Part shown: positions 11,870 through 34,049 of the stretch, piece after piece
How positions within the stretch are numbered: the stretch's first letter is position 1
How the letters are laid out: each line of letters opens with the position of its first letter
IMG/VR virus record: IMGVR_UViG_3300038345_000144
DNA from: a virus
Lineage: Duplodnaviria > Caudoviricetes
Reading direction: 5' to 3' (one strand)
Length of the DNA stretch: 64,000 nt
Notes under the pieces: generated by a model
Seen by the model: only the letters and a program-made list of their open reading frames with translations
Database searches by the model: none
What the model was told of the DNA's origin: nothing
Made by a program: the position numbers and the translations under genes

Positions 11870-11887
11870 ATAAAATATATTCCTTTC

Positions 11888-16308: not shown

Positions 16309-16332
16309 ATAGTATTTTTCCTTTCATATAAA

Positions 16333-16413
16333 TAAAAACCCCCATTACGAGGAATAATGTGCATAACGATTGCAGTCTCCTACAACGAACGAGAAACCTC
16401 CATATCTGGAGAA
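16333..16413 (-). CRISPR. CRISPR-like mini-array C: 2 degenerate repeats, 1 spacer
   Basis: Plus strand TAAAAACCCCCATTACGAGGAA (16333-16354) and GAGAAACCTCCATATCTGGAGAA (16391-16413), 36 nt apart; same repeat family as arrays A and B. Confidence 0.75.
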
Positions 16414-16414
16414 G

Positions 16415-16783
16415 TTATTTTAAGTATTTTGGTATCTGGTCATAGGCTTTCCAGAATTCTTGGACACTTATCTTACCGAATTCTTCTTTATCCAATCTGG
16501 TAAATTCATAGCCTACATTACCGTGAGGTCCGAACATATCTATTCGCTTGATACGCTGACCTTTCTTATAAATATCAATAGTAAAGTGTAATGTACCAGA
16601 CCAAATGGTTGATACTAATAAGACTTCCGTATTATGATTTTCTGCCAAAGTAATACACTTACTTCTAACAGGATTATACGGATTATCTTTAATGGTAACT
16701 TCCTCAAGATGAAGAGCCTCACGAACAGCGTCAAACACTATTCGGCTTACCTTAACCTTGTGAAGAAAACATACTCTTTCCAC
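16415..16783 (-). CDS. hypothetical protein
   Basis: ORF with SD. Confidence 0.55.
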   Translation of the reverse strand: MERVCFLHKVKVSRIVFDAVREALHLEEVTIKDNPYNPVRSKCITLAENHNTEVLLVSTIWSGTLHFTIDIYKKGQRIKRIDMFGPHGNVGYEFTRLDKEEFGKISVQEFWKAYDQIPKYLK

Positions 16784-16814
16784 AAAAATTCCTTCCTTTG
16801 CGAATAAAAGTCAA

Positions 16815-17114
16815 TTAAGACGGCTTAACATACAAAGTGATTTTGATGTCCTCATCAGTAGAGTCATAACCACATACATCGACCTCAAGTTCATATTGCT
16901 TAAACATTTCCTTTATCTTGTAGTCTAACTCTGCGGTTATATCAAAATCTGAAATAACTATTCCTAATGACGAAATAGGGTATATTTCAAATACGGCTCG
17001 GTTAGCATCACTAATGCCCTTGTACTTCATTCGTACACCTGTTTTATCTCGCCACATTTCCTTGTTAAATTCACCCTCTATCTCTTTGAGGGGGTATGTC
17101 TGTAAATCTTTCAT
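16815..17114 (-). CDS. hypothetical protein
   Basis: ORF with AAGGAG SD. Confidence 0.6.
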   Translation of the reverse strand: MKDLQTYPLKEIEGEFNKEMWRDKTGVRMKYKGISDANRAVFEIYPISSLGIVISDFDITAELDYKIKEMFKQYELEVDVCGYDSTDEDIKITLYVKPS

Positions 17115-17147
17115 AGTGAACTCCTTAAATCAATATAAACCCACAAA

Positions 17148-17600
17148 TTACTTCTGGTCACGGAGAACAGTTACTCCGTCCAGTTTAGTTATAGTAACTT
17201 CGGTGCGTGGGTTTTGCTTGTCATACGCCACATAACTGCCGTCTGTGGAATATATAAAATTGCAGTTATCATCTTTAACACAACCATACTTTTTTAAGAT
17301 GTCGTGTAAAGCCTGATGTAAGTTGGTAATATCAACCGCCCTGCGTGTTTCCATATAGAAAACTGCCTTAACATTAACAGGATAATCAATATTTTCAGCA
17401 GGAATATACTTCTTACAAGCCCTCTCATATTTCTGATACTGTGGGCTTGGCACGATATATAGTGTTACAGGAATTGAGGCTCCGTTCTTGCCTTTGACAT
17501 AAATGACTTGTCCTCTACCAGTATGTCTTCCCGTCTTTGCTATAATCTGTGAGTGGTTCTTTTTGGTTACAGGGCAAACAGGAATGGTAAATTCAATCAT
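17148..17600 (-). CDS. rusA: RusA-family Holliday junction resolvase
   Basis: PVTKKN start, DITNL..ALHD..L, DD, NPRTEVTI. Confidence 0.85.
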   Translation of the reverse strand: MIEFTIPVCPVTKKNHSQIIAKTGRHTGRGQVIYVKGKNGASIPVTLYIVPSPQYQKYERACKKYIPAENIDYPVNVKAVFYMETRRAVDITNLHQALHDILKKYGCVKDDNCNFIYSTDGSYVAYDKQNPRTEVTITKLDGVTVLRDQK

Positions 17601-17917
17601 TACTCGTCTCCTTTTGCGTTAGCCTCTTTCTTGGCATTTGCCTTTGCCAAATTACGCCTTGACTGTTCCTTCTGTTCCTCGGTCAAATGAACAGGCGTTC
17701 TATACGAAATGAGTTTCTTGGAAAATCTATATGTAGCCGACCATTCATCACGCTTAATGCACTTATAGTCATCAGGGAACTTGGCACACTTTTCGTCCAA
17801 CTTTCTCATTTCAACAGGGTCAGCAGTATAGACCTCTGCCATCTTCTCGGCGTTATTATAGTTTGCTATTGTTTCCATTTCCAATTTAGAGAATGGATTT
17901 CTTTCTGTCTTTTCCAT
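17600..17917 (-). CDS. conserved phage-type hypothetical protein
   Basis: ETIANYNNAEKMAEVYT..LTEEQKEQ..L pattern. Confidence 0.6.
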   Translation of the reverse strand: MEKTERNPFSKLEMETIANYNNAEKMAEVYTADPVEMRKLDEKCAKFPDDYKCIKRDEWSATYRFSKKLISYRTPVHLTEEQKEQSRRNLAKANAKKEANAKGDE

Positions 17918-18045
17918 AATTGTTCCTTTCCGTACTCCTCGTACCCGTAGTATAACAACTACCTTATTACTTGTAAAGTTATATAAAAGAAGACCAAGCC
18001 CAACGCAGGGTTGAACTTGGTTTGATTATTCTAAATAAATTCCAT

Positions 18046-18339
18046 TCAACAACCCTTCTTGGGGTCAAACTTTATCTTAACAATTCGATATAATGTTATA
18101 CCCTGTTTCTCAAGATAAATGTTACCAGCACAATAACCTACAACTTGATGAAGGCTATCATACTGTGCGTCGTCAATCTCAAAATACTTTGGACGACCTT
18201 TGCTTCGGTAAACAACCACATATTTATGTTGCTGTCTATCTGGTGCAATCTCATCAGTTTCTACGAACTCAATTTTCACAAAGTCCATATCTACATCATA
18301 GAAGCCATACTCGTTACCGTAGTAGTAATAATCTTCCAT
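18046..18339 (-). CDS. hypothetical protein
   Basis: ORF with SD. Confidence 0.6.
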   Translation of the reverse strand: MEDYYYYGNEYGFYDVDMDFVKIEFVETDEIAPDRQQHKYVVVYRSKGRPKYFEIDDAQYDSLHQVVGYCAGNIYLEKQGITLYRIVKIKFDPKKGC

Positions 18340-18351
18340 AGTGTTTCTCCT

Positions 18352-18825
18352 TTACCACTGGTTCATAAACTCATCGGGAGTCTGAATACTCATTGAGTAA
18401 CTGTCTTCTTTACCTGTCTTGGTCTGATACCTCTTAATAATATCAAGCAAAGTCTCCAACTCTTCTAACTTGAGAGGAATTGTTCTGAATTGATACTCAA
18501 AGAGTAAGTAGTATCTATTTGACTCGTTCTTGACTTGCTGACAACTCTTTTCCTCTGCCTTAACAAAATCACTTAACTCGGACATAAGACTTGTCTTGAG
18601 CCTGATAACTTCATCAAACATTTCTCTGTTACGAGCCGACCATACAGAGCCTCCCTCTTGGCAGTCGGTCCAGCAGTTCCTTATCTTATCCCATTGAAAG
18701 TTGTGTAAGACATCAAGGGAAATTGTAAAATTGATAACATACTCAATCTCGCTATTCTCGGAAATGTAGTTCTTGAATAACGATGGAGAACAGTTTGTTA
18801 TCGTTCCTGAATATGTTTGAAACAT
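18352..18825 (-). CDS. hypothetical protein, paralog of 18841-19341
   Basis: WDKIRNCWTDCQEG vs WDKKKNSWTDCELG. Confidence 0.7.
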   Translation of the reverse strand: MFQTYSGTITNCSPSLFKNYISENSEIEYVINFTISLDVLHNFQWDKIRNCWTDCQEGGSVWSARNREMFDEVIRLKTSLMSELSDFVKAEEKSCQQVKNESNRYYLLFEYQFRTIPLKLEELETLLDIIKRYQTKTGKEDSYSMSIQTPDEFMNQW

Positions 18826-18840
18826 AGTGCTTTTTCTCCT

Positions 18841-19341
18841 TTATCTTAAATATATTTCGGGAGTACCAATATACAAATGATGTTGGTAATCGTGTTTCTC
18901 ATCTGCTAAATCTCTTGGGGTGAGTGTATCTCGGCTATCATATAACTTCAAAGTCCTGCATAACTCGTTCAATAACTCATCTACGGTAATTGGACGGGTT
19001 CTGAAGCAATAGTTTATACTAACCCAATATACATTAGAGTCGGTATGAACTTCTTGTTGGTCTTTTATCTCTGTTTTTACCCAACCCTCGATGTCATTCC
19101 AAAATTGTTGCTTTTGCTTCATAGCCTCTCGGAAAAACTTACTGTTTCGGTTTCTCCAAGTATCGCTACCCAACTCGCAATCAGTCCAACTGTTCTTTTT
19201 CTTGTCCCACTTATAATCATTAGGTACAGGAAGATTTAGAAATATGTGTATTTCATATTCTCTTTCTTCTTCTCTTGGAATGTAGTTATTAAAGTAACAA
19301 ATATCTACACTTTTAATACTACCTTGATAAGTACAATACAT
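18841..19341 (-). CDS. hypothetical protein, paralog of 18352-18825
   Basis: Shared motifs; start at MYCTYQG after GGAGG. Confidence 0.7.
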   Translation of the reverse strand: MYCTYQGSIKSVDICYFNNYIPREEEREYEIHIFLNLPVPNDYKWDKKKNSWTDCELGSDTWRNRNSKFFREAMKQKQQFWNDIEGWVKTEIKDQQEVHTDSNVYWVSINYCFRTRPITVDELLNELCRTLKLYDSRDTLTPRDLADEKHDYQHHLYIGTPEIYLR

Positions 19342-19355
19342 ACAGGGTCTCCTCC

Positions 19356-19940
19356 TTAACAATGGAAATCAAGCACATAGAAGAAACGAGTACGGTTAGA
19401 TTTATCCAACTCTGCCCTACGCTGTTGTTCAACTTCTTTTTGTAGAGCGTCTATCTTTGCCCTAATCTTTTTCATTTGCTTGTCATAGTATTCTTTTACT
19501 GAAGTAGAAACCATCCAGTTACGACATACAGGACAATATAACTTGTATTGCAAAGCGATTTCCTTCTTATAACGGGACTCACACTTATCACAACTACAAG
19601 TAGCAGATGTTCTCTCTTTGAACTTCTCAATACACTTTGCTCTATAATCTTGTTCCCACTCACGCTCTTCTTGTTCACGGTCTTGCAGTTTCTTTATATT
19701 TTTCTGAAGACTTTTTGAAGGCTCTGTGGTTTTAACCTTACAGATACCACCCTCACCATATCCTCTGCTTAAGAACTCATATGCTTCGTCTTCAGTGGTA
19801 AATGTCTTATCATAATAGGTAAAATCGCCGCCGTAATCGTAATAATCGCTGTTTAATTTACGGTCAACTATGTCCTCCACTTCTGAAATTGCTTGTTCTT
19901 TAGTTTTAGCATCTAAAAATCCACTTGATATTTCGTGCAT
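19356..19940 (-). CDS. hypothetical zinc-ribbon/coiled-coil protein
   Basis: CxxC...CPVC; SD present. Confidence 0.6.
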   Translation of the reverse strand: MHEISSGFLDAKTKEQAISEVEDIVDRKLNSDYYDYGGDFTYYDKTFTTEDEAYEFLSRGYGEGGICKVKTTEPSKSLQKNIKKLQDREQEEREWEQDYRAKCIEKFKERTSATCSCDKCESRYKKEIALQYKLYCPVCRNWMVSTSVKEYYDKQMKKIRAKIDALQKEVEQQRRAELDKSNRTRFFYVLDFHC

Positions 19941-19952
19941 AATAGTTCTCCT

Positions 19953-21288
19953 TTAATCTTCTTCTCTCTCAAGCCTATAAATTGCCATATCTATGAATTC
20001 CTTATGCCCCTCTACGCAGTCATATACCCATTCATTACTGACGGTATCACAACAGCCTAAAGTACCATAAGTCTTGGCACATCGCTCGCAATCCTTATAG
20101 AGTTCCTTCGGAATTTTCTCTGGTTTATAAGACATAGCCTTCTCCTTTAGATGTATTGATAATCAATGTGTAATTGTAACATTAGATGAACTGTCATCAT
20201 TTTACCGATATTAGGGTCTGCCCAATGAATTGTGGCTTTTCCATCATCAAAAGACCAATCACAATCCTTTGTCAAAAGATTGATATAAAATGTCGGCTCA
20301 TCTCGAACAGCATCCGCTACTTCCTTTACAAGACTAAAGAAATCCTCTTCGGAATAGCAATCTTTTGTTTGAAAATACTGACAATTTGCATTTTGGATAG
20401 ACACTCTGGCAAAATAATACAATTTTGAGTTGGTATTTTGTATTCCTTTATTACCTGCTTTAAGCATTTCAAAACAATCGCCTATGTGCATAATGGTTCT
20501 CCTTTACCAATATATTGTAAAATCTTCATTTACGCCAACAACTTTAGCGTCTGGGTCAATAGAATGAATTATCTCCTCTAAATTATGCCAACCAATGTCA
20601 TTGTTCTCTTTCTTGGCATCAATAACCTTTTGAAAGTCTTTGGTTTCTTTATCTGAAATAACGATGGCAAGTACATTACCCCATTCATCACAATCTCTCA
20701 ATAAATGATACATAGGTACTCCTTATCCGAGAATAATGTGCTTTTCAGGGGCTAACTCTTCACCGTGGTCGCCTTCAAAATCTTCAGCGTTCTGTGATGT
20801 GAGTTCGGTAAATCCATAATATAAACCGTGATACCCATTACCCTCATCATCTCTGGAAATGTAAATCTGTCTATTTCCATAACCCTTGCTTATTTCTTCA
20901 CTACATAATTCCATAAGTTCTTTTACAGTAATAACAGCCATAATATTCTCCTCTCTTATTTATACGAAGTTACTAAAAAGCGTACATATACCAAAGGGAG
21001 CATTTCGTCTGCTGGGTTAGTCCAATGAATAACTCCAATACCGCCTGTAAACTCCCAATCATCTTCTTCACAATGCCTAATAATATCATCGGCTCTTGTG
21101 TCGTACATATCCTTAATGTAAGAGTAAAAACCCTCTTTGGTTGTGCAGAGTGCTTTATCGCTAACTTGTCTTGCATCATCCTCTGAAAAGAAAGATAATG
21201 CTACTTCAAAAATACACTGGCTAATATCCAGTTTGGCTCCTGCTTCATTATAAGCAGTTAAAGCGTTAAAAACCTCATCAATTTTCAT
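19953..21288 (-). CDS. cluster of five small hypothetical ORFs (19953-20135, 20147-20491, 20504-20713, 20723-20941, 20956-21288)
   Basis: Each preceded by (AA)GGAGA SD, tightly packed; 20147 and 20956 share a DW.F..G...IHW..P motif. Confidence 0.6.
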
Positions 21289-21312
21289 AACCTATTCTCC
21301 TCTCAATAGGCT

Positions 21313-21861
21313 TTAGATAATCAATAAGCCTGCGTAAGTACCATCTTCCTTACCAGTAGAGGTAACGATGTAAGTACCGCTTGAAAGATTTTCTATTCTT
21401 TCGTTCTTATCAACATACTTATACTTTGGAAGTCTTGCAGGAATAACCGCCTTCTTCTCTCCCTTTGCCAAGAGGTGTACGAAGGTGTCCTTATCGAGCA
21501 AATAAATACCTGTCTTTGTAGCAATAGGCACAATAGGATATTTGTCGATAGAAGCCAGCATATTCTTCAACTGCTCGGTCTCCTTGACAGGTGTTACTTT
21601 CTTCATCTCGTCCTTAACACAATGAGCCTTCTTTCTGATTTCAAGCGTAATGCCGTTTAAGAACTTAATCTGTGCATCGCTCGGCGTAAGGAAGTTAGTG
21701 TCATTATGGGACATATAGTTTCTCATAATTCTACATACCTTCAACTGCTCCTGTGTTGTACCGTTCAGACTATTCTCATAGTCCAGTACCGACTGATTTG
21801 AATACTTCAATTCTGCCTCTAATTCCTTGTAGGCATCCAAAAACTTATCTGTTAAATTCAT
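21313..21861 (-). CDS. putative HEPN-like (RNxxxH) N-terminal domain + CBS-like domain protein
   Basis: FLDAYKELE...MRNYMSH followed by VKDEMKKVTPVKETEQL..YPIVPI. Confidence 0.5.
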   Translation of the reverse strand: MNLTDKFLDAYKELEAELKYSNQSVLDYENSLNGTTQEQLKVCRIMRNYMSHNDTNFLTPSDAQIKFLNGITLEIRKKAHCVKDEMKKVTPVKETEQLKNMLASIDKYPIVPIATKTGIYLLDKDTFVHLLAKGEKKAVIPARLPKYKYVDKNERIENLSSGTYIVTSTGKEDGTYAGLLII

Positions 21862-21886
21862 AGTTTATAGTTCCCTTCTATAATTA

Positions 21887-22943
21887 TTAAATAAATTCAC
21901 TATCGAATTCTTCTTCAAGTTGTCTGACAAAATCATTCAACTTTTTAGGTGTTTGTATATCAGGGAGAATTTCTCCCCAGTAACCATTGTTAAAACAACC
22001 CAACCAAAATTCATTTATCAGGTGCTTAATATAATGCTCGGCTTTCTCCAATGTCTTTACATCAGAGTCTAAAAGATAACCGCTATAAATACACTTTTGT
22101 CTACGCTGTGCCATATAATAATCACCCATAGAAATATCGTGTATCAGTTCTACATCAAAGCCCTTGTAAGTAAATCTTGTTTTCATAGATTGTCCCCCTT
22201 TTAATAAATTACTCTTAAAGTGTCATATTGACTTTTATGAACTGCGTTTTGTAATGTAGGGAAATATACCCCTTCGTACTGTAACTGATAGGTTACATAA
22301 GGTATGCGGTCTTTCATAAAATACGAAGTATCAAGTATTCGATAAACTTCTCCCTTATGTCCTGACCACCTCTGGTCCAGTTTAACGAGTTCCCCAACTT
22401 CAAAAGGTTTATTATCTGGGGTGTGTTTTTCTCCCTTTTTTAAGGGGTGTAATTTAAGTGTTATATAAAACAATATCAATTACCTCCTTGTGGTACATCA
22501 ATTTTTATAATGAAGTGATATTGACCCATTATTCGACAATCTTCCTTGTCTCTAATACGGTCATAGGTTTCAATGCCATATCTGAAATTTCGTTCAACTG
22601 GCGTTAATCCCATAGAGGTAATCTTTTCTTCTAAAGCCTCTGCAAATTTGTCCATCATTGAAATCTGCTCTTCTTTTTTCTTTCCCACCAATGAAACCGC
22701 AGGTGTATCAAAGAAGCCATAGTCTATGCAGACATACCACTGTGCAGTTGCATTATCAATGTAGTAGTTGACCTTTATATAAAAGGTGTCCCTACCACCT
22801 GATAGTGCTTTTTCTGCTCGCTCCATACAAATAGACTCAAACTTGGGTGAGTTTAATCTACTTCTAAATGTAGCAACAGCATTATGTAGAGCGTCAATCT
22901 GCTGTTGTTTTATTGCTTGTAATTTACCTAAATCAAAGCCCAT
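21887..22943 (-). CDS. three small hypothetical ORFs (21887-22186, 22201-22479, 22476-22943)
   Basis: Packed ORFs with SDs. Confidence 0.55.
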
Positions 22944-22952
22944 AATTTAACC

Positions 22953-23504
22953 TCAATCACCAAAGAATTTCTTAAGTTCTTCCGTGGTCGGGAGTTCAGA
23001 GTCTTCGTTCTCATCAATAGGTTCACCATTTTCGTCATATTCAGGAATGTCCCAACTACTACCGATAGTTGTGGCTCCGTTAAAACTCATTGACTCACCA
23101 AAACCCTGTTCTTCTTCCCAGTAAAAGATAAACGGCTTACCTAAACTGGCTAACTTGTCAATCCACGGCATCGGAGGCGACCAAGCGGTATCAAAAGTAA
23201 GAATGATGTAACCATCTTCTTCTCTTTGGGCGGTATCAAAACCTCCCCACTTTGTTCCCCAAAAATCACAATGCCATTTATACCAATTAAACCACGGTTT
23301 GCCCTCACTATGGTCTAAAGCGTTTACACTACGACCATTCTCATCAACAGAGTCGAGATACTCTTCACCATAGTCGGCACGGCACTTTTCTTCGGTTTCT
23401 GGTTCAGGAATAAGAATGTTGAAATCTATGTTTCCTTCGCCATCAAGCATTTTAGCAAGCAAGTCCTTGCGACAAATAATAGTATTTGTTACATAATTCG
23501 GCAT
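22953..23504 (-). CDS. YubB/DUF1281-like ferredoxin-fold protein
   Basis: MPNY start, WYKWHCDFWGTKW, FDTAWSPP motifs. Confidence 0.75.
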   Translation of the reverse strand: MPNYVTNTIICRKDLLAKMLDGEGNIDFNILIPEPETEEKCRADYGEEYLDSVDENGRSVNALDHSEGKPWFNWYKWHCDFWGTKWGGFDTAQREEDGYIILTFDTAWSPPMPWIDKLASLGKPFIFYWEEEQGFGESMSFNGATTIGSSWDIPEYDENGEPIDENEDSELPTTEELKKFFGD

Positions 23505-23516
23505 ACTATATCTCCT

Positions 23517-24011
23517 TTACTTTTGAAATTCGTTATGAATGTTCTCGATGGTCTTACTTGCGTCATACATCAAGTAGAACTTTGAGACTTCAGCAGTGTC
23601 CTTTGCAGAAAACTTAACGAAGATTTCTCCGTTAATAAACGCTACACCGTCATCAACTTCAGGTACAGCAAACTGTGAAAAATCAATTAAGTCCTCAAAC
23701 TGATGAGCAAACTTATTGATGTTTTCAATAGCCAAGTTCATTTCAGAAGCAGGTACTTGGTTCAAATCCAGCGTAATATCCAGTACACCTCTGGCAGGGG
23801 ACGGATATACAGCCACAAGGGGATAAGGAGGCTTACAACTACCATTCAATATCTCATTTGTTTGCTCAAGTATGTAATCATAGATGGTCTGAAGAAAAGC
23901 ATCCCAATCCTGACCAACACCTCTTTTAGCAAAGTAATACTCTGCCTCTTTTAGCCACTTAATCTCAAAAATAACGGATGTTCCTAACGGATTAAATCTT
24001 TCAACTGCCAT
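23517..24011 (-). CDS. hypothetical protein
   Basis: Start at MAVERF after AAGGAG. Confidence 0.55.
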   Translation of the reverse strand: MAVERFNPLGTSVIFEIKWLKEAEYYFAKRGVGQDWDAFLQTIYDYILEQTNEILNGSCKPPYPLVAVYPSPARGVLDITLDLNQVPASEMNLAIENINKFAHQFEDLIDFSQFAVPEVDDGVAFINGEIFVKFSAKDTAEVSKFYLMYDASKTIENIHNEFQK

Positions 24012-24024
24012 ACTATATTCTCCT

Positions 24025-24381: not shown

Positions 24382-24401
24382 ATATTCTCTTCTCAAGTTA
24401 A

Positions 24402-24800: not shown

Positions 24801-24812
24801 ACAATATTCTCC

Positions 24813-26749
24813 TTATTTCTCGCCTCTTACCCAAGCAACCCATTCTGTTTCAAACGGATTGCGTGAAGTAATACTAAAGATAATCTCGTTGTAGTGTTCC
24901 TTTAACTTGTTATAAGCCTCTTCAGGACTATCTGCACGGTCATACCAACCATTTGCATATTCTTTATCAAGTTTAGTAAAACCAAAGCCTGCGATTACAC
25001 TATCTGGTAAGAATGAGTTTGCCCTTTCAATAGGGTTCTCAAGAAGATAGTCAATATATGTCTCTGGGTTTTCTCTGGCACAATCACCACACATAATATC
25101 TTCTTCATCAATAATTACGATGTTGTGAGAATAGTTAATAGTGCGAGGAACAATCTTGTAGCAGAAATCACATACTACATACTCGTCGGAAAAACCAAAA
25201 TTAAGTCCTACCATATCTACGAACTTTTCACGACAATGAACATTTTGCTCGGCATCAAGTTCCTCTTGAGTAATCTCTCCTAATGCGAGTAACTCTTTAC
25301 CAATCATTTCATCAATCTCGCCCAAGTCATCCCAATCATAGACAACGAGCATTTTTTCATCATCTTCTCCATAAGAACGATATTCAATATCGCCTCTTTT
25401 TTCCTGATACTCTTGAAGTACCTTTTCAATAAGGTCAGTATAATTTTTCATACAGTATTCTCCCTCTGTAATAAATTAAGGCTTAATATAGAAACCAGCC
25501 TTGTGTTCAATATAACCATTTTCTTCAACGAGTGCTTTGTTAGCCTCTAACTTGAGTTTGTAAGCGAGGACATTACCACCCATATCCGTTAAAGCGTGTA
25601 GCAGATTAGCATAACCAATCTCGCCTGTCTCTTCTGCAATTTCAGAGAGCGTCTCAATGAAATCTTCAACAGCCTGATTATATCCGTCATACACACCTTC
25701 AGCGTAAGCAATCTGGTTGTTTGTCTGTACTGTTTCCATAAGTCTGACATACTCTTCTTTATTCATTTCTAAAATTCCTTTCTAATTATCTTCTTTTTCT
25801 TTAATCATCTGTAAAATAAATCGCTCAAAAGCACTATGATTGCCTGATAGGTCATATCCAGGTTCCAACTGTCCGTCATACCATAACTTGGCAGTTTCCT
25901 GTAATTTGGTATCAGGTATTTCTGTGCCATTAGCAAAATAATCTTCTAACCAGTGTAAAATCTGCTTTCCGTATTCGTTAGCGTATATACCTTTTCTCAT
26001 ACAATGAGCCAAGAAGTCGCCTCCGATTACACTTAACTTGGGAAACTCGTTCATTATTACTTTCTCGTCTTCGGTGAAGTAAGGGGTCTTTACCCAGTTA
26101 CCATTTTTATCTTTGGTTTCCCAAATAGCATTAAGGGCGGGATTTACTTCCCACCCTAACTGTTTTGCAACCATTTCAAATTCGTGTGGAGTCCAATCTC
26201 TACTCATACCCAAAGTCTCCTTTATTCTTCATAAACAAAAAGTATGCGTCTTTCTTCTTCATTTATGTTACGAACATAAAGATTAGGCTTTAAGTCATCA
26301 AACCACTCTGCATTATAAATCAACCTAAATTCTCCTGTAAGAAGCACACTTCCATCACTTTGCAGAGTGACGGCTATGCCCTCATCAATAGTATTGTTTT
26401 CGGCTAAAATACCAGCATACCTTATATGCGGTAGTTTAAGCAAAGCGGTTTTGTAAAAATAGGGAAACCCCATTGATATAACATAAAACTTTGCAAACTC
26501 TATTTGTGTCATACTATTATTCTCCTCTTTCCTAATAGTTTATTCTTCTTCTGTTAATTGACTTAAATCTTCGGGGATTTCTTCATCGTCCTGCTTGGTT
26601 CTTTTAAGGAACACAAGGAAGAGTCGATTTTGCGTCCAAATAGCCTCACTAATATCTTTGAGCCTATACGCAATCAAAAAGAGTGCTGAAGCAAATAATA
26701 CAACGATTACTGCTACAAATATACAAATTCCAAGTACGGTCATATTCAT
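24813..26749 (-). CDS. five hypothetical ORFs (24813-25451, 25476-25766, 25782-26213, 26222-26512, 26540-26749; the last is a single-TM protein)
   Basis: Packed ORFs with SDs. Confidence 0.55.
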
Positions 26750-26784
26750 TTTTTCATACTTCCCTTCTTACAATTAAATAGTCT

Positions 26785-27267
26785 TTAGGTCATAATGGAC
26801 GACATATGGAAGAAATGGCACTTTTCAGGGTTCTTGAAGTGTCTTTCCATTACCAGCAAGTCCTCTAAATTGTCATCAATATAGATAAACTCTCCGTAAG
26901 TGTCAAGGATAGACTCTAACTGCCTAATCTTGTCCTCCAGAGATTTAGCCCAATATAACTTTGAGATTTTAGGATAATACTGATGAATTTCATCGGTCTT
27001 ATTCTCAAACTCGATGTCATTATGTATCTTACTCATAACAAAGAGGTTCTTGGTGTTGGTCTTATGACTGACAAAGTTCCTCATATAAGGGATAGGTTCG
27101 GCGTACAAACATTCGTCTTCCTTCATAGCCTCAAGTAAGGCTTCATCAGAGTTATCCATAATGCTGATTTGCTTAACAAACCAACGAGCCTCAAATAAAG
27201 TTCCGTCGTAGTCAAATACAATAGGCGTATCTGGGTTCTTCATCAATTCTTGTAAATACTTATTCAT
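26785..27267 (-). CDS. HAD-superfamily phosphatase-like protein
   Basis: FDYDGTL motif I, YIDD motif IV. Confidence 0.7.
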   Translation of the reverse strand: MNKYLQELMKNPDTPIVFDYDGTLFEARWFVKQISIMDNSDEALLEAMKEDECLYAEPIPYMRNFVSHKTNTKNLFVMSKIHNDIEFENKTDEIHQYYPKISKLYWAKSLEDKIRQLESILDTYGEFIYIDDNLEDLLVMERHFKNPEKCHFFHMSSIMT

Positions 27268-27297
27268 TCCTTAACTTACCTTCTTTATCGTTTTTAA

Positions 27298-27768
27298 TTA
27301 GTCCTCATTACCGTGTTCGTCATATATACCGATTGCACAGTGATAATCGTTAAGTATCGTGCCACTCGCATTTTCGGCATAAAACTCAAGGTTAGGAATT
27401 ATCTTTTCCCATTCAGGCATCATCTTGATTATTTTGTTGATTAACAACTTAACGCCTTTTTTATCGTTAATCTCTATATCTACATAAATAGTTGAGGGGC
27501 AATCTACATCAACAGCCTGATAGTGACCGCAAATATACGCATCACCTACACCTTCATTACCTACATTGTAAGTAAAGTTGTTGTCTATGTTAGAAATACC
27601 GCACTCATCCTTAACACTCTCTATCCAAGTACCAAACTTTGCACCGAATTGTTTGAGCATTTCGAGATTTTCTTCGGAGGTCATATCAACATAGTCTCCG
27701 TCTTTGTCTTTCTCGTTCTTTTGCATTTGATACCAAATAGCCATAATAATCGTTCTTTTCATAATCAA
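27298..27768 (-). CDS. hypothetical protein
   Basis: ORF with GAGGAG SD. Confidence 0.55.
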   Translation of the reverse strand: MIMKRTIIMAIWYQMQKNEKDKDGDYVDMTSEENLEMLKQFGAKFGTWIESVKDECGISNIDNNFTYNVGNEGVGDAYICGHYQAVDVDCPSTIYVDIEINDKKGVKLLINKIIKMMPEWEKIIPNLEFYAENASGTILNDYHCAIGIYDEHGNED

Positions 27769-27778
27769 TTCTCCTCTC

Positions 27779-28765
27779 TTACTTAAAACAAGTCTTACAC
27801 GGCGTATAGCCTTGTGCTATCAGATTATTATATGTGTCCTGTACTGTCTGGCTATTCTCACCAGTAGGAAGTCCCGAACAACCGTCAGGCTTATGGAACT
27901 TCTTTGATTTAGTGTTGATTATGTAAGTAGCCGTCTCGTCCATCCAAGCGTCAAAGTATTCATCTGCTCCAGCATCAGCATCATTTGTTGCCATACCAGT
28001 AGCATAATCAATAGTCCAACCTTCCTGAACATTAGGACACCAGAAACAGAAGCAAATCGCACTTCCGTTATCATCTACGGAGAGAGCCTCCATAACAACT
28101 CCACGGGCAACTAATTCATCGCCAACATAGATAGGAGTTACACGATACATAATGTGAATACCAGGGTACTTTTCCAGAGCCTCGTCAACAGCGTTCTCTT
28201 GAGGTAGCATACCCTCGATATTTAACTGTCTTGTACCAGTAATGAGGTTCTTTGGATTAGCGTTCTCGCCAGCCAACTGCCAACCAATAAGATGACATCT
28301 GTTATAAAGCCAACTTCCGTCAACATCGGGAGCCTCTATTGATTGCCAACCACTCGGCTTAACACTTGATATGGACTCTCTACGCTCGCCGTCAGCAGGC
28401 TGGAGTTCAGAAGAAAGGCAAGCAAACGCTACACCACATCTACCAAACTGGTCTAATTCGGCATAACTCTCAAAAGGCTGGTCGGTAATTTCTTCAGAAG
28501 TGAAATAAGGTTGACCGCCATTCAAAGTAACAGCATATTCCTTACTGTCAATTACCGAAGCCACATCCGACATCATAGTACCAGTCGTAGGTCCAGTCGT
28601 AAGTGAGTCGGTAGCAGAAGTCGTAGGGTTGACACTTGTTGCAGTTGTCGTAGGAGGTGTCAACTTGTCGGTATCAGCGTTCTTTATGCCGTAGTAAATA
28701 CTGGCTCCGATTACCAATACCCAAAAAGCAATTATGATATATAACTTGAGTTGCTTCTTATTCAT
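27779..28765 (-). CDS. membrane-anchored DNA/RNA non-specific endonuclease (DNA-entry nuclease type) with C-terminal Ada-like metal-binding domain
   Basis: N-terminal TM; LDQFGRCG, YNRCHLIG, NLITGTRQLN, YRVTP; C-terminal KKFH..C..GYTPCKTC. Confidence 0.88.
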   Translation of the reverse strand: MNKKQLKLYIIIAFWVLVIGASIYYGIKNADTDKLTPPTTTATSVNPTTSATDSLTTGPTTGTMMSDVASVIDSKEYAVTLNGGQPYFTSEEITDQPFESYAELDQFGRCGVAFACLSSELQPADGERRESISSVKPSGWQSIEAPDVDGSWLYNRCHLIGWQLAGENANPKNLITGTRQLNIEGMLPQENAVDEALEKYPGIHIMYRVTPIYVGDELVARGVVMEALSVDDNGSAICFCFWCPNVQEGWTIDYATGMATNDADAGADEYFDAWMDETATYIINTKSKKFHKPDGCSGLPTGENSQTVQDTYNNLIAQGYTPCKTCFK

Positions 28766-28831
28766 AACTTACTTCCTTTCAGATGTATCTTATTGTGCGA
28801 GTATTATAGCACATTCGATACTTGCTTGTCG

Positions 28832-28889
28832 AGAGTCTGAAATATACCGTACATATGTTCGTTCTGTTCGCCAAATTTTTTCAGACTCT
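28832..28889. repeat. 11-bp inverted repeat AGAGTCTGAAA, 36-bp spacer, just upstream of a promoter
   Basis: Arms 28832-28842 and 28879-28889. Confidence 0.6.
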
Positions 28890-29127
28890 TATATATCACT
28901 ATTCTTTTCTTCTTTCTTGAATAAAAGTGAAACTGGTTTCAATATATCACCTAATTTGAAATTTTCACAGTTAACTAATTATTATAGAAGACCCTAATCT
29001 ACCCATATCCATATCCATAAATTATGTAACTTTTTTAACTTTTAGCCATTTTCTCAAATTTGCTTGATAGTTTTCAAGTCACAAAATTTTCGGTAAAATC
29101 GGGGATAGTTACCACATATTTTTCGGT

Positions 29128-29712
29128 TTACTTGGACTTACCTTTTGGTGTAGGTTTCTGGGTAGGTGTCTGGGTTGCGGTTTTCTCTGACTCTAACACA
29201 TTGTCACCTGTCTCACTTGGAGATGGTGTCGGAGATGTGGTAGGGGTAATCAGGAAGTCATCAGCAATTTCGGTGTTGATAGACAAGAACGGCGTTTCTG
29301 TCTGATAGAAGAACAGTTCAATATCGACATTCTCTTCTTTCTTGTTAATGCCTATCTCAATCCTGCCGTCGCTCTCTTCTCCAGCGTTCAAATGACAGCC
29401 GTAGAAGTTAGAGTATTTTTTATTGCCATTTACAAAGGTCTTAACATCGTTCATACCAATATCCTTATAATCATCAGACACATTGACATAATGGAAGTTA
29501 AGTACCAAGTTGTGCAACTTATCATCGTAGGATATGCCCGTAAAGCCTACCTCTATGCCGTTGACCGTAGTAGAGTCACCAACATACTCAATCAAGTCTC
29601 TGTGGACCGTAGGCACGGGTTCCGTTGTTTCCGTTATGTTCAGATTAAGGGCAGAACAACCTGTAATGGCTATCATAAAGGTTGCCATAGCCAATGCTAA
29701 TAGTTTTCTCAT
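29128..29712 (-). CDS. lipoprotein with Ig-like (DUF4352-like) domain
   Basis: Lipobox ITGC; Thr/Pro-rich tail. Confidence 0.6.
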   Translation of the reverse strand: MRKLLALAMATFMIAITGCSALNLNITETTEPVPTVHRDLIEYVGDSTTVNGIEVGFTGISYDDKLHNLVLNFHYVNVSDDYKDIGMNDVKTFVNGNKKYSNFYGCHLNAGEESDGRIEIGINKKEENVDIELFFYQTETPFLSINTEIADDFLITPTTSPTPSPSETGDNVLESEKTATQTPTQKPTPKGKSK

Positions 29713-29740
29713 AAGTTACCTCCAAACTCCTGTGGGAGCA

Positions 29741-30136
29741 TTACATACCTAATTTAGCCTTAACGCTGTCGGAGAGTTTGAATGTATATTCACAACTCTT
29801 GCTCTTGAGTTGGTTACAAATGAGTTCAGCCTTACCTCTTGGGATAAGCCTCAAATCCTCTTTTGTCATATCTCCGTCCATAAGGATAGTGAAATATACT
29901 CTCGCACCGTTAATCAGTTCAATCTTCTCTAACTGCTCGGTTGTAGCGTCTTCCATAGACTCAAATTTAGCACTCATCATACGACCAATCTGGTTCATAC
30001 ACTTTAAGAACAACATTGAGTAGTTGGTCTTCTCACTCTCCTTTAACTCCTGATTGCAGTCAAAGGCGATAGCAAGTGGATATGTGTCGCTGATGTCTGT
30101 AATGGTGAATTCGTATTGTTTAATTTCCTTTGCCAT
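29741..30136 (-). CDS. hypothetical protein
   Basis: ORF with GGAGG SD. Confidence 0.55.
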   Translation of the reverse strand: MAKEIKQYEFTITDISDTYPLAIAFDCNQELKESEKTNYSMLFLKCMNQIGRMMSAKFESMEDATTEQLEKIELINGARVYFTILMDGDMTKEDLRLIPRGKAELICNQLKSKSCEYTFKLSDSVKAKLGM

Positions 30137-30216
30137 AAAAGCCTCCTAAAAAATAAAGGAATTAGACGAAAGTATCTAATTCCTTTTTTAATTATTTTAT
30201 TATAATTAAATAGCCG

Positions 30217-31539
30217 TTAATTCTTCTTCCTCTTGGGGAGTTGGTAAATGACCTCTTTGTTGTCCTTTCCTCTCCAGTGTCCAGTAACCTGTACGGTCTT
30301 GCCTGACTTATTGATGTAGCGTTCATAACCTCTTACCCAATGTCTTCTCGGTGAAGCGTGGTGGGTCTTGAACACTGTTCCATTAGTCTGCTCATAACGG
30401 ACAATATCCGTGAGAGTTCTGATATAAGGCTCTTCCTTGTCGCTATCAACATTATCTCCGTCAATAACTACAATATCGTTTGTGAGGGTGCTATTACGCT
30501 CACTGGTAGGTGCGTCCTTATAAACAGTCTTTCTGTTTATAAATGCACTAATCGCCTGAAATGCCGAGGACATCAGATACTTGTCGTCCTGACTCAATAC
30601 CCAAGCGGCGGGCAGTCTTAAAGCGGGGGAATTCTTTTCCTCACCAGTGACTTCCTTCATCTTGAACCAACGGACATTCTTATCATTGAAAATCTGCTCT
30701 TCGGAAATATCTCTGTTAATCATTCTGCACATCAACAGTATATCTTCGGGGTACTGTGACGGAATACTCAACTCAACCTTTGACATCTTGGTATAGTTGC
30801 TCTTATAGTCATCATATCCCTGCTTGAGGAACAACTGCTTATAGTGGTGGCAGAATGTGTTTTGAAGGTCGATAAAATTCAACAGCCAAAGATGAGTGCC
30901 GTTCTTTTCGCCCTCTTCTTCTTCAGGAGCCTTATCCAAGTGAATGTACTTACCATTAAAGATAGTCTGCTTGGGAGTGCCTGTAAACGCTCTACAAGGC
31001 TTATGGGTGTTACAAAGTTCGATATAGCACGGAGCATACTCACCATTCATATTGTTCTGAACATTAACCAGTACACACTCAATCTTCAATGCCTCCAACT
31101 GCTTCAGAAGTGGAGTAATGTCCTTCAAATCGACAGGCTGATTTTCAAAGTGCTCAAACGGTACAAGGAATGTAATCGAGTTTGCCCTCTGATAATAAGT
31201 GTCTATATAGTTAATCATATCGGTTGTGTGTTCTGCAAGTTCATACAGCCTCAAATAACGAGGGTCCTGACCACCATACTTGGAAAGAGCCGACTGCATA
31301 TCTTCCCAAATGGTAATCATATTGTCCCTAATCTTGTAGGTGGTGTTAATGTACTCAAAGAAGTCATTACGCTCACTATACAGGATAGGTGTGAGGTCTG
31401 CTTCGTAGAATTCCTTGAGCAAGTCCATATCAAAGTAATGTCTTGCCCAACTATTCTTCTTTAAGAAGTCCATCAGTATCTTGGTGGCTTCGAGATAGTA
31501 TGAAGAATAATCATCTCTTCTGCTGGGAAATGTAATCAT
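30217..31539 (-). CDS. hypothetical protein with C-terminal HASPRRHWVRG..GHWRG basic motif
   Basis: 440 aa ORF with its own promoter and terminator; this type of C-terminal motif occurs in phage proteins. Confidence 0.65.
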   Translation of the reverse strand: MITFPSRRDDYSSYYLEATKILMDFLKKNSWARHYFDMDLLKEFYEADLTPILYSERNDFFEYINTTYKIRDNMITIWEDMQSALSKYGGQDPRYLRLYELAEHTTDMINYIDTYYQRANSITFLVPFEHFENQPVDLKDITPLLKQLEALKIECVLVNVQNNMNGEYAPCYIELCNTHKPCRAFTGTPKQTIFNGKYIHLDKAPEEEEGEKNGTHLWLLNFIDLQNTFCHHYKQLFLKQGYDDYKSNYTKMSKVELSIPSQYPEDILLMCRMINRDISEEQIFNDKNVRWFKMKEVTGEEKNSPALRLPAAWVLSQDDKYLMSSAFQAISAFINRKTVYKDAPTSERNSTLTNDIVVIDGDNVDSDKEEPYIRTLTDIVRYEQTNGTVFKTHHASPRRHWVRGYERYINKSGKTVQVTGHWRGKDNKEVIYQLPKRKKN

Positions 31540-31571
31540 TACACATATCTCCTTTTATTTAATGATAAGTC

Positions 31572-31601
31572 ATTATAGCACAAAAAGATAATAAATGTCA
31601 A
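31572..31601 (-). promoter_or_regulatory. consensus sigmaA promoter
   Basis: TTGACA-18-TATAAT with extended TG, minus strand. Confidence 0.75.
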
Positions 31602-31608
31602 TGATAGT

Positions 31609-31652
31609 ATGTAACCTACAAATCCTCATTTTTAGCAAAATGTAGGTTACAT
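31609..31652. repeat. perfect 12-bp inverted repeat ATGTAACCTACA, 20-bp spacer
   Basis: Arms 31609-31620 and 31641-31652, immediately upstream of the -35. Confidence 0.75.
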
Positions 31653-31786
31653 TTTGTCCCGAAAATTATACAATAATCGTGACAATAAGAAAAGCACCTC
31701 ATTTCTGGGGTGCTTTCTTTCTGTGTCTCTTGTTGCAGACCTTGTAAACAAAGGTCTATATAAAAAGGAGTTGGCTAATCTCCAAT

Positions 31787-32017
31787 TTAGTCTTCTTTTG
31801 ATGATACGATGTCCAAATGAGTAGCCTTTCTCTTCATTGTTGCAATATGCAGACCGAGAATGACCATCCAAAGAACCGCTAATACTGTATTACGGATTGC
31901 TCCTCCAATATCGGCTCCTGAAATATAGCCGAGGATTGCCGCCAGTGAATACAGCGTTACAATAATGCAATCTAAAATAAAAGATACCTTATCCAACTTT
32001 GAAGCGGATGCAAACAT
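31787..32017 (-). CDS. small two-TM membrane protein
   Basis: Start MFASAS after AAAGGAG; two hydrophobic helices. Confidence 0.65.
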   Translation of the reverse strand: MFASASKLDKVSFILDCIIVTLYSLAAILGYISGADIGGAIRNTVLAVLWMVILGLHIATMKRKATHLDIVSSKED

Positions 32018-32113
32018 AACTTTTTTATCTCCTTTCGTGATATTGTTTATATTATATTCAAAGAAAATATCGTTGGTCAATAGTGTGGTGACGATTTTTT
32101 GTAAAATTTGAGT

Positions 32114-32176
32114 ATGACCAAATAAATGACTAAATAATGACCCAATAAATGACCCAATAAAATTTATGATGATGAC
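32114..32176. repeat. ATGAC(C/T)(C/A)AATAA-type repeats, 11-12-bp period
   Basis: ATGAC at 32114, 32126, 32137, 32149, 32172. Confidence 0.75.
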
Positions 32177-32465
32177 CTTAAAATAAGCAATCATAATAAA
32201 TAATAAAGGCAATAGTTAGTAGGAGGGCAAATAGGGATAAATAAAGAATATATATTATTGAATAGTGTGACATATTGTACTTTTTATTCCAAAAACAGGT
32301 TTAACGATACTTTTTTTAACAAATCGTCAGTTTTAGTATCGTTAACGGCACTTTTACGCAGTTTCAAACAGATTTTCTGTTCAAATCTGATTTTCACTAT
32401 AATCAGGAGTTTCAATACATCGTTAAAACGGTCAATTTTAGTGAAAGTTTAGTTAAAGAATAAAA

Positions 32466-32591
32466 TATAACACCACCGTGTTATAGTAGACATTTTGAGG
32501 GTAAAATAGGCACATATCACCGACATTTTGAGGGTACACTACATTACTCCACATTACGCTAAATGGTAATGTAAGGTAATGATTTAGCGTA
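32466..32591. repeat. palindrome + 2 x GACATTTTGAGGGTA + inverted repeat TACGCTAAAT
   Basis: Palindrome 32466-32485; direct repeats at 32489 and 32522 (33 bp apart); IR arms 32555-32564 and 32582-32591. Confidence 0.75.
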
Positions 32592-32639
32592 GTATAAAAA
32601 TACCGCTTGCTTTTTACTCTTTAGTGTATATAATCTAAA

Positions 32640-32732
32640 TATGCTTATAGCACTCCTTCAAGCAAGGTATGTTTTTAGCAAGTTAGGTTGTTATTGGAAG
32701 ACACTGCTTTGCAGAGTGGTGTCTTTTCTTTT
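32640..32732 (+). ncRNA. putative sRNA with anti-SD loop
   Basis: TTGCTT-16-TATAAT promoter (32607-32634); UGCUU/AAGCA hairpin with ACUCCUU in the loop; terminator 32698-32732 with G-U pairs on the plus strand. Confidence 0.55.
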
Positions 32733-32737
32733 GCAAA

Positions 32738-32928
32738 TAAAAACCCCCGTATGTACGGGGAAAATTCATAAACATTTAGTCACCGAATTCCCAATTTCGA
32801 GAAACCTCCGATAACGGAGAAGAGCAACACTGCAATTGCAAGCGTATATAGTGAGTGAAAAACCTCCGTACACGGAGAAAAGGGACCCAGAAATCAAGAA
32901 GATAAGAAAAACCTCCACAACTGGAGAA
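32738..32928 (-). CRISPR. CRISPR-like mini-array A: 4 degenerate repeats, 3 spacers (36, 35, 26 nt)
   Basis: Repeats at 32738-32762, 32799-32821, 32857-32879, 32906-32928; minus-strand consensus TTCTCC-N6-GGAGGTTTTTC; unique spacers. Confidence 0.8.
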
Positions 32929-32935
32929 CAATAGA

Positions 32936-33163
32936 TTAGCCGTTAAGTTCAGCCCACTTTGCCATCATTTCGTCCCTGCGACCATCTGGATAGTTTGATG
33001 TTCCATAATAGAGATTGCCGTCAGCGTCACGATTATCAACTGTTGCTACGACAACATCTGCCTGCAACTTACTGCCATTCTCATTGGGCTTATATGTAGC
33101 ACATCCAATCGCACCTAAAGCAACGATGATAAGGATAATGATTGATATGATTGCCTTCTTCAT
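32936..33163 (-). CDS. small lipoprotein between arrays A and B
   Basis: Signal peptide with AIGC lipobox; SD and promoter upstream. Confidence 0.65.
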   Translation of the reverse strand: MKKAIISIIILIIVALGAIGCATYKPNENGSKLQADVVVATVDNRDADGNLYYGTSNYPDGRRDEMMAKWAELNG

Positions 33164-33430
33164 TTTAAGTTCTCCTCTGTGTGGTAAAAGCCTTTATTTT
33201 CAAGGACTTTAGCCTGTATTTTTCTCTCAAATGTAAGCAAATCATAGCATCTTTTTCTGGTGATGTAAATAGCAAAAACGGCTTTTTTTGCATTTGTAAT
33301 ATTACAATTTTATGTAGTTGTGGTTGCCCTGTTTTGACACCCCAATATATAGTGGTTGAGTGGTAAAAATGCCCTGAATTCAACTTCGTCATTCAACTGT
33401 TTAACTGCATCATTTGGGGCAAAATGACTA

Positions 33431-33522
33431 AATTAAATAACCCCTGCTCACCCGCTTAATAGTGAACAGAGGTTATTAGGAAAGAGGTAATTATTCTATA
33501 TTATGAATAATCGAATAATATA
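33431..33522 (-). ncRNA. putative antisense sRNA S1
   Basis: TTTACA-17-TAGAAT promoter (33528-33556); terminator 33436-33477 with minus-strand G-U pairs; no ORF on the minus strand. Confidence 0.55.
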
Positions 33523-33567
33523 CTCCTATTCTACACTTGTAAACAGCATTTGTAAAGTAAAAATGAT

Positions 33568-33647
33568 AAAAACCCTGTCTATGACTACGACTTCATAAAC
33601 AGGGCGAAAGTAAGGAAAAAAGTTATGAATAATGAATAAGATATATG
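33568..33647 (-). ncRNA. putative antisense sRNA S2 (related to S1)
   Basis: TATAAT at 33653-33658; terminator 33573-33604 + U-tract; shares TTATGAATAAT(C)GAATAA with S1. Confidence 0.55.
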
Positions 33648-33699
33648 CCTCTATTATAAGTGCTTTTTCTTAAAATGGAATAGGCAATTACAGACATAT

Positions 33700-33960
33700 T
33701 AACAATCTCCGTACACGGAGAACTGGAGCAATAGCCTTGAAAAGAGTGCTCTTGCCGACTGAAAAACCTCCTATACAGGAGAAACATACATATACCTTAA
33801 TGGTCTTATTCAGAACGCTGGAAAAACCTCCAAACTGGAGAATAAACCCGAAGTCACTGACCACATATTTAGAGTCTTGAAAAACCCCCATAACGAGGAA
33901 CCATTGTTAATCCAACAACTGACCGTGTTGTTCTTGAGAAACCTCACAAGGCTGTGAGAA
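33700..33960 (-). CRISPR. CRISPR-like mini-array B: 5 degenerate repeats, 4 spacers (38, 37, 36, 35 nt)
   Basis: Repeats at 33700-33722, 33761-33783, 33821-33842, 33879-33900, 33936-33960; period 57-61. Confidence 0.85.
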
Positions 33961-34049
33961 TGTTCTGATGAAATTCAAAACAATCAATGTTCATCTATCA
34001 TTATTAAATAGCCGTTAATAGAAAAGAGGCACTTGTGTACCTCTTTTGA

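Follow-up and report, generated by a model that had tools for sequence, protein, structure and literature searches.

The virus record IMGVR_UViG_3300038345_000144 (Caudoviricetes), of which a stretch of 64,000 nucleotides (the window) was analysed, carries three small clusters of hairpin repeats, A1, A2 and A3, which with a probability of roughly 0.8 are mini-arrays encoding the CRISPR RNAs, or crRNAs, of the phage's own divergent, adaptation-less type I-E CRISPR-Cas system. This reading is built on the geometry of the repeats and the covariation of their stems, on the presence of the same repeat family beside cas6e and cas3 in related phages, on an interference operon indicated in the same genome, and on the divergence of homologous guides in relatives, which is concentrated at every sixth position.

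A DNA similarity search of the window against INPHARED phages gave no match, and an IMG/VR scan for two consecutive copies of the repeat gave one locus only, in G001, a complete phage genome of 467,383 bp with direct terminal repeats. G001 matches 28 window proteins at 27-92% identity (35-62% for most of the large ones), syntenically and in inverted order; the window is therefore assigned to a related huge phage, and is a piece of a genome larger than 200 kb, probably with a size of about 400 kb. The window encodes, among others, SbcCD-like nucleases, a ParA-like ATPase, an NAD-dependent ligase, a helicase and a PilT/VirB11-like ATPase. By exact protein look-up the window lies on a Logan contig of 184,946 bp from run SRR1725612; from position 32,799 on, contig and window are 100% identical, and the part below 32,827 is covered by a second contig. 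Other exact protein matches came from rumen and gut-type assemblies, and the genome is also represented in run SRR16020831 and in the STEW19 rumen assemblies.

Mini-arrays and their repeat family

Eleven units of one design (TT, a stem of 5-6 bp with a loop of 3-4 nt, the second arm, and a GTTTTTC-like tail) lie on the minus strand in three intergenic clusters of two (A1), four (A2) and five (A3), all of them where the initial annotation of this DNA had placed them. The gaps between the 7-nt tail of one unit and the TT of the next measure 36 nt in A1, 26, 35 and 36 nt in A2, and 35, 36, 37 and 38 nt in A3, the same set as originally given, and all eight are unique in sequence, as claimed. The period of the units is 58-61 nt with one exception (49 nt), and the type I-E geometry that had been proposed is borne out by the TT, the stem and loop lengths, the 7-8-nt tail and this period. 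Every gene of the window is on the minus strand, which places the arrays in the sense direction.

A strict repeat pattern has six matches in the window against 0.00 expected (none in 100 shuffles). A structural descriptor (a stem of at least 5 bp, a loop of 3-4 nt and a GTTNNT[CA] tail) matches the minus strand 11 times and the plus strand not at all; ten of the matches are repeats of the initial annotation, each with TT ahead, and the eleventh annotated repeat escapes the descriptor through its degenerate tail. No two full repeats are identical, again as originally stated, and just one hairpin occurs twice (A2 repeat 2 and A3 repeat 5). With a mean column identity of 58-76%, the repeat alignment falls below the near-identity expected of a strict CRISPR array. 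No shared leader was found ahead of the window arrays, which begin 1-7 nt past stop codons, and Rfam and tRNA scans of the window returned nothing.

A covariance model of the kind proposed in the initial annotation was trained on 17 repeats that have a 6-bp stem and a 4-nt loop (15 of them from relatives, two from the window); the model and the covariation count were limited to this class because MAFFT misplaced the gaps due to loop length. The model recovers all 11 window repeats, nine of them outside the training set; every one is on the minus strand, where no other copy in the window reaches E<0.1. Two extra matches were rejected, one at 38642 (plus strand) as a chance match within a gene, the other at 37364 (minus strand) as an ordinary terminator. 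In the 17-sequence alignment 97.1% of stem cells are paired and five of the six pairs have changed on both sides; the observed covariation score is reached by 0 of 500 shuffles, and controls with slid partners pair in 25-60% of cells. Several stems contain G-U pairs, which on the opposite strand would be A-C mismatches and fit minus-strand RNA only. The arrays, repeats and predicted guides, all on the minus strand, are as follows; scores in bits are those of the covariance model, and the register of the guides is explained below.

16332..16416 (units 16413..16332), minus: array A1, two repeats and one guide (pattern, descriptor, covariance model)
16390..16416, minus: A1 repeat 1, 5-bp stem, 4-nt loop, GTTTCTC tail (17.8 bits; descriptor)
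16358..16389, minus: predicted 32-nt guide A1g1, gap 36 nt (register inferred from the 8-nt handle of relatives)
16332..16357, minus: A1 terminal repeat (descriptor, covariance model)
32737..32931 (units 32928..32737), minus: array A2, four repeats and three guides (pattern, descriptor, covariance model)
32905..32931, minus: A2 repeat 1 (24.1 bits)
32883..32904, minus: short guide A2g1, about 22 nt, gap just 26 nt (gap length)
32856..32882, minus: A2 repeat 2 (28.4 bits)
32824..32855, minus: predicted guide A2g2, gap 35 nt (gap length)
32798..32824, minus: A2 repeat 3 (15.4 bits)
32766..32797, minus: predicted guide A2g3, gap 36 nt (gap length)
32737..32765, minus: A2 terminal repeat, 6-bp CCCCGT stem and T-run, terminator-like (37.4 bits, the top score)
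33699..33963 (units 33960..33700), minus: array A3, five repeats and four guides (pattern, descriptor, covariance model)
33935..33963, minus: A3 repeat 1, stem CTCACA/TGTGAG, a compensatory change (27.8 bits)
33903..33934, minus: predicted guide A3g1, gap 35 nt (gap length)
33878..33904, minus: A3 repeat 2, G-U pairs in the stem (descriptor, covariance model)
33846..33877, minus: predicted guide A3g2, gap 36 nt (gap length)
33820..33845, minus: A3 repeat 3 (23.5 bits)
33788..33819, minus: predicted guide A3g3 (20-nt core match to a G001 guide)
33760..33786, minus: A3 repeat 4 (20.9 bits)
33728..33759, minus: predicted guide A3g4, gap 38 nt (gap length)
33699..33725, minus: A3 terminal repeat, hairpin as in A2 repeat 2, degenerate tail (16 bits)

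A1 starts 1 nt past the stop codon of the open reading frame (ORF) 16415-16783, and 23 nt separate its end from the start of a SIR2-family gene; the G-U pairs of its terminal repeat form only in minus-strand RNA, and the GGGGG and T-run of this repeat are also terminator-like. A2 starts 7 nt past the stop codon of a 75-aa ORF (32936-33163), and ahead of A3 a small ORF is followed by a terminator-like hairpin, from which the array lies about 60 nt downstream.

The same type of repeat is found at several places in the genome of G001, where a scan with the covariance model gives about 28 copies at E<0.1, confined to the coding strand and located at about 18-39 kb, 54.7 kb, 233 kb, 246 kb (beside the cas genes) and 433 kb. 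The arrays of G001 are thus dispersed as well, and dispersed mini-arrays are a trait of the family rather than a peculiarity of the window. Some G001 arrays have five extra conserved bases ahead of the stem, making a 29-nt repeat, and the array at 35.8 kb combines a 29-nt conserved repeat with an exact period of 61 nt. A unit comparable in shortness to that of A2g1 also occurs in G001.

Cas genes of the phage family

The window itself contains no recognisable cas gene, as the initial annotation had stated: tblastn with the family's own Cas proteins gave only matches at E>0.3, and Pfam and PHROG scans of 20 large window ORFs gave none. In G001, six degenerate repeats with gaps of 35-37 nt lie between cas6e and a cas2-cas3 fusion, with the genes of Cse1, Cse2, Cas7e and Cas5 upstream. 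Cse1, Cas7e (CT1975), Cas5, Cas6e (CRISPR_assoc), Cas3_HD and Cas2 (CT1978) exceed the Pfam cut-off, and Cse2 is just under it (22.8 bits versus 24.6). The six-gene operon is also present on the 425.8-kb contig L036, where six such repeats follow it, the first starting 5 nt past the cas3 stop codon, and precomputed Pfam matches give the same six cas genes in L036, L037 and L039. The signature set of type I-E (cas8e, cas11, cas7e, cas5e, cas6e and cas3) is therefore present in the relatives, with no member inside the window. L036 is a different relative from the window's genome, having no hairpins ahead of cas3.

In L039, the window's closer relative, the operon reads cse1, cse2, cas7, cas5, cas6e, cas3 and has no adjacent array. 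Of 180 words sampled from this operon, 139 recur in a stretch of 7,073 nt in the window's own genome, 107,733 nt beyond the window end. Judged by these shared words, the window's own genome holds a predicted, nearly identical cas8e-cas11-cas7-cas5-cas6e-cas3 operon about 108 kb beyond the window. The initial annotation had attributed the processing of the guides to a Cas6e and Cascade of the host or, in brackets, to an effector encoded outside the window; it is the bracketed suggestion that agrees with this operon and with the position of the repeats beside cas6e or cas3 in two relatives, and the host enzymes are not favoured.

An adaptation module is lacking. Cas1 (PF01867) was not found anywhere in the complete G001 genome, control genomes being positive, and neither cas1 nor cas2 was found within 10 kb of the operon in L036, L037 and L039. 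Instead of a cas1-cas2 module, G001 has Cas2 only as a domain fused to Cas3: the N-terminus of its Cas3 (L004 14272-16983; G001 246271-248982) is a type I-E Cas2 domain (PF09707). Cas2-Cas3 fusions are usually tied to type I-F. The Cas3 of L039 has no Cas2 domain, and the 60 nt between cas6e and cas3 of L039 (12431-12490) contain a pair of repeat-like hairpins, of which the second has an ATAAAC-like handle after it, just ahead of the cas3 start; these hairpins may subject cas3 to Cas6e-dependent control.

The phage Cas proteins lie far from cellular ones. When the G001 Cas7e was used as query, 63 clusters, the phage clade, matched it at 48-98% identity, their contigs reaching 532 kb; the next matches, after a gap, are cellular Cas7e proteins, the nearest of which have an identity of only 22-26%. 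Three phage Cas6e proteins match solved Cas6e/Cse3 (CasE) chains and retain the C-terminal glycine-rich loop and the invariant His29.

Guide divergence and the proposed mechanism

Three pairs of homologous guides are available from relatives: two within G001, each from different arrays, and the first guide of the cas-adjacent array compared between L036 and L037. With guide position 1 taken as the ninth base after the stem (an 8-nt handle), 12 of 15 comparisons differ at positions 6, 12, 18, 24 and 30 (6n), versus 11 of 81 elsewhere; positions 3, 9, 15 and so on (6n+3) differ in 3 of 15, and the remaining positions in 8 of 66. The 6n excess has a Fisher probability of 7e-7, and 6n differs from 6n+3 at 0.0014, on which ground codon wobble was rejected as a sufficient cause of the divergence. 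Only one of the six registers shows the effect, namely that set by the 8-nt handle. Both G001 pairs are found again when positions divisible by 3 are disregarded (19 of 22 matches, over 5 standard deviations from the mean on the high side), so the result is no artefact of how the pairs were chosen.

In type I-E Cascade, every sixth guide base is flipped out by the thumbs of Cas7 and does not read the target. Together with this property, the pattern indicates, as far as sequence comparison can, that the RNAs of the relatives have been under long-term selection as Cascade guides, and it fixes the 5' handle at 8 nt.

The arrays evolve more quickly than the sequence around them. Between L036 and L037, two strains of one phage, the first spacer differs at 6 of 32 guide positions against a background of 1.5-3%, and one whole array unit has been gained or lost. 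A strain variant of A1g1 (L047) differs from the window at guide positions 20 and 21 and at one 3'-flank position, that is, at 3 of the 36 gap positions (two in the 32-nt guide) against a background of 1.4%, with the repeats in the same 131-nt A1 alignment unchanged. The proteins flanking A2 and A3 were found only on contigs of the same sample. The two SRR1725612 contigs overlap only at 32799-32827 (29 nt), inside A2 repeat 3, where the assembly graph branches; array polymorphism in the sample may account for this break.

As phage-encoded crRNA genes, the arrays, which lie in sense directly after or between minus-strand genes, would be co-transcribed with them. Phage Cas6e would bind each 5-6-bp hairpin and cut at its 3' base, yielding crRNAs of about 59-61 nt in which an 8-nt 5' handle (GUUUUUC and one further base) precedes a guide of about 32 nt, and the next hairpin forms the 3' handle. 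Phage Cascade would load these crRNAs, and Cas3 would degrade guide-matching DNA next to a protospacer-adjacent motif, the likeliest targets being competing phages, other mobile elements or host genes. With no Cas1 (and, in L039, no Cas2 domain either), guides would be inherited and would change by point mutation, duplication, recombination, and gain or loss of whole units. The repeats, never being recopied by spacer acquisition, would consequently drift apart, keeping the hairpin and the handle that Cas6e and Cas5 need.

A broader proposal, to which we give somewhat less than even odds, is that the clade as a whole uses CRISPR without adaptation: dozens of inherited guide-RNA genes would be scattered in the tails of operons, with purifying selection on 27 pairing positions of each guide, drift to saturation at the five flipped-out positions, and retargeting only by point mutation, duplication and recombination. 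Freedom of the repeats from sequence identity may, in addition, protect the arrays from recombinational loss.

Alternative explanations and comparison with known systems

Several results weigh against guide production by the window arrays. The every-sixth-position signature comes from relatives only, no in-register homologue being available for any window guide; the cas operon of the window's genome is recognised by word sharing with L039 and not from its own DNA; one unit has an off-length gap of 26 nt; and the whole-array RNA fold of A3 is no more stable than those of shuffles (z = -0.73). The protospacer matches that the initial annotation had looked to were not found in the searches made: INPHARED phages gave none for the window guides, pattern scans of IMG/VR and JGI metagenome contigs gave none beyond chance, and GTDB genomes gave three chance-level matches in unrelated taxa with no extension. 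Compared with the window, G001 (467 kb) and about 100 kb of other relatives, the window guides have only chance matches of 14-16 nt, bar one 20-nt similarity of guide to guide (see below). The annotation had also named findings that would speak against its proposal, among them a lack of related repeats or of a Cas6 and spacers invariant among relatives; Cas6e and related repeats do occur in the phage family, and spacers vary among strains.

The guide-to-guide similarity concerns A3g3, whose 20-nt core (33793-33812) matches, at 19 of 20 positions and in reverse orientation, the last guide of the 35.8-kb array of G001 (36061-36080), itself a homologue of guide 5 of the cas-adjacent array (246161-246180). 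Guides of two distant phages thus seem to converge on one short, conserved DNA sequence. A T4-type portal gene, suggested as target by one IMG/VR match, was rejected, since the match was forced by the pattern, the consensus of 120 portal homologues after the shared motif does not fit the guides, and G001 has no such portal; DnaE-like and tape-measure-like matches of the 19-mer do not extend beyond the core. Separately, a short first guide of G001 at 20.3 kb (20305-20322) has an exact 18-nt match on the opposite strand of G001 itself (432657-432674), inside a cell-wall-hydrolase-like gene, which may be due to chance (E about 0.002 in the search) or may be a partial regulatory self-match.

A further point against guide production is that 8 of the 11 window hairpins satisfy a simple terminator pattern (stem and T-run), and this is also an argument for regarding the hairpins as mainly tandem intrinsic terminators or RNA-stabilising 3' hairpins, or else as decayed, non-functional CRISPR remnants. 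The arrays do lie at gene ends, the terminal repeats have strong G-C stems followed by TTTTTAT, and the lack of identity among repeats could reflect decay. Termination, however, does not need a regular period of 58-61 nt with unique gaps; the units occur two to five in series, for which weak stems of 5-6 bp would be an odd design, and A1 is inside an operon. The explanation is also at variance with the conservation of the TT and the GTTTTTC tail across phages with only 35-62% protein identity, with the compensatory changes that keep the stems, and with the conservation of the relatives' homologous guides except at every sixth position, which amounts to selection on the gap sequence. We regard this explanation as improbable, while allowing that terminal repeats, with their G-rich stems and T-runs, may also act as terminators.

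Production of guides for the host's machinery, with cutting by a host Cas6e and loading on a host Cascade as in virus-borne mini-arrays, would suit the absence of cas genes from the window and has a counterpart in huge phages that have host-like repeats and no effectors (PMC7162821). The full type I-E interference operon indicated in the same genome and the adjacency of the repeat family to phage cas6e or cas3 in two relatives make host Cas6e and Cascade unnecessary and very unlikely; moreover, phage Cas7e is only 22-26% identical to its cellular counterparts, which suggests that the repeat co-evolved with phage Cas6e. Phage mimics of CRISPR repeats that inhibit host CRISPR-Cas are also known (PMC10651486), and since the repeats are I-E-like, the units might be conceived as RNA anti-CRISPR (Racr)-like decoys that soak up host type I-E Cas6e and Cascade and guide nothing. 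Racrs are mostly solitary mimics of host repeats, whereas the units described here form arrays with guide-length gaps, guide sequence is under selection in relatives, and a cognate phage Cascade and Cas3 are at hand; a decoy function has, in our estimate, hardly any likelihood.

The phage-encoded system preferred here shares with the type I-E systems of Escherichia coli K-12 and Thermus thermophilus the set and order of its genes (cas8e/cse1, cas11/cse2, cas7, cas5, cas6e and cas3), the TT, a 5-7-bp stem, a loop of tetraloop size, an 8-nt handle, a period of about 61 nt and a 32-nt guide, as well as, in the guides of relatives, the absence of constraint on every sixth position. It differs in that the family has no cas1, and cas2 only as a Cas3-fused domain in one relative; in that repeats within an array are not identical and have no recognisable leader; in that many small arrays are scattered in or behind operons, far from cas; and in that its proteins are distant from their cellular homologues (as quantified for Cas7e). 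The handle is GUUUUUC-like in the phage, AUAAACCG in E. coli. The system is of type I-E in its interference module and repeat anatomy, and is not so in its adaptation genes and the identity of its repeats.

Huge phages with adaptation-less CRISPR-Cas and compact arrays are well established (PMC7162821, PMC11656645, PMC13282480, PMC13037316), and those of Al-Shayeb et al. 2020 (PMC7162821) and of jumbo-phage surveys (PMC13037316) resemble the present phage in lacking Cas1, Cas2 and Cas4, in their short arrays, and in a presumed role against competitors or host genes. The type I example highlighted by the former is a variant of I-C without Cas6 (PMC7162821), unlike the type I-E system described here. 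The initial annotation expected CRISPR finders to miss arrays such as these, and escape is plausible: surveys of huge phages relied on MinCED and CRISPRDetect (PMC7162821, PMC13037316), finders for which the repeats must be nearly identical. Viral arrays of 1-4 spacers away from cas are also found in the Saccharolobus portogloboviruses SPV1 and SPV2, whose repeats are identical to the host's and whose spacers match related viruses (PMC11656645), whereas here the cognate Cas proteins come from the virus, the repeats have degenerated, and the related phage DNA examined contains no match to a guide. Racrs (PMC10651486) are likewise phage-encoded hairpin RNAs resembling CRISPR repeats, but are decoys without functional guides, in contrast to the guide-length gaps of the window and the selection on guides in relatives. 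The type I-F system of Vibrio phage ICP1 (PMC11656645) is similarly phage-encoded, with Cas3 and, in ICP1, offensive use, but has an adaptation module, one conventional array of identical repeats and a known target, PLE, in all of which the present phage differs. No description was found in the literature searched of a huge-phage type I-E clade with dispersed, cas-distant arrays whose repeats are conserved in structure only, nor of the every-sixth-position signature as evidence of guide use.

The existence of arrays that identity-based finders would plausibly miss, spread over a genome of about 400 kb at a distance from cas and bearing, in relatives, a sequence signature of Cascade use, suggests that surveys undercount phage guides, and with them the networks of phage-phage and phage-host targeting that are derived from such guides, and that type I-E runs on inherited guides across a large clade of huge phages from gut and rumen (the 63 Cas7e clusters mentioned above). 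If the broader proposal made above holds, these arrays would be a natural, evolutionarily stable, multiplexed guide library, and the 6n signature would be a sequence-only test of the use of orphan arrays. Engineers design non-identical functional repeats to keep multiplexed arrays stable. For study, the clade offers many repeat variants compatible with Cas6e, and a compact, divergent Cascade and Cas3.

Minor features of the window adjoin the arrays. SbcD- and SbcC-like nuclease genes (9990-13522) and the SIR2-family gene (15535-16308; Pfam match) adjoin A1; since the SIR2 gene begins 23 nt past the last A1 repeat, Cas6e cutting would part it from the upstream message. Between A3 and A2, an ORF-free stretch (33430-33660, minus strand) has overlapping promoter-like sites at 33556-33528 and 33543-33515 and a strong terminator-like hairpin at 33605-33572, and may contain one or more small RNA units. 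Downstream of A2 are about 520 more ORF-free nucleotides (32213-32737) with short direct repeats, among them two copies of a 14-nt word near 32530-32490. GC skew falls to near zero and AT skew becomes positive in the 32-34 kb bin, and the stretch could be a regulatory or replication-related region. Farther away, an operon at 50599-53504 encodes a PilT/VirB11-type ATPase (PF00437) and two large unannotated proteins; it is 57-60% identical in G001 and is unusual cargo for a phage.

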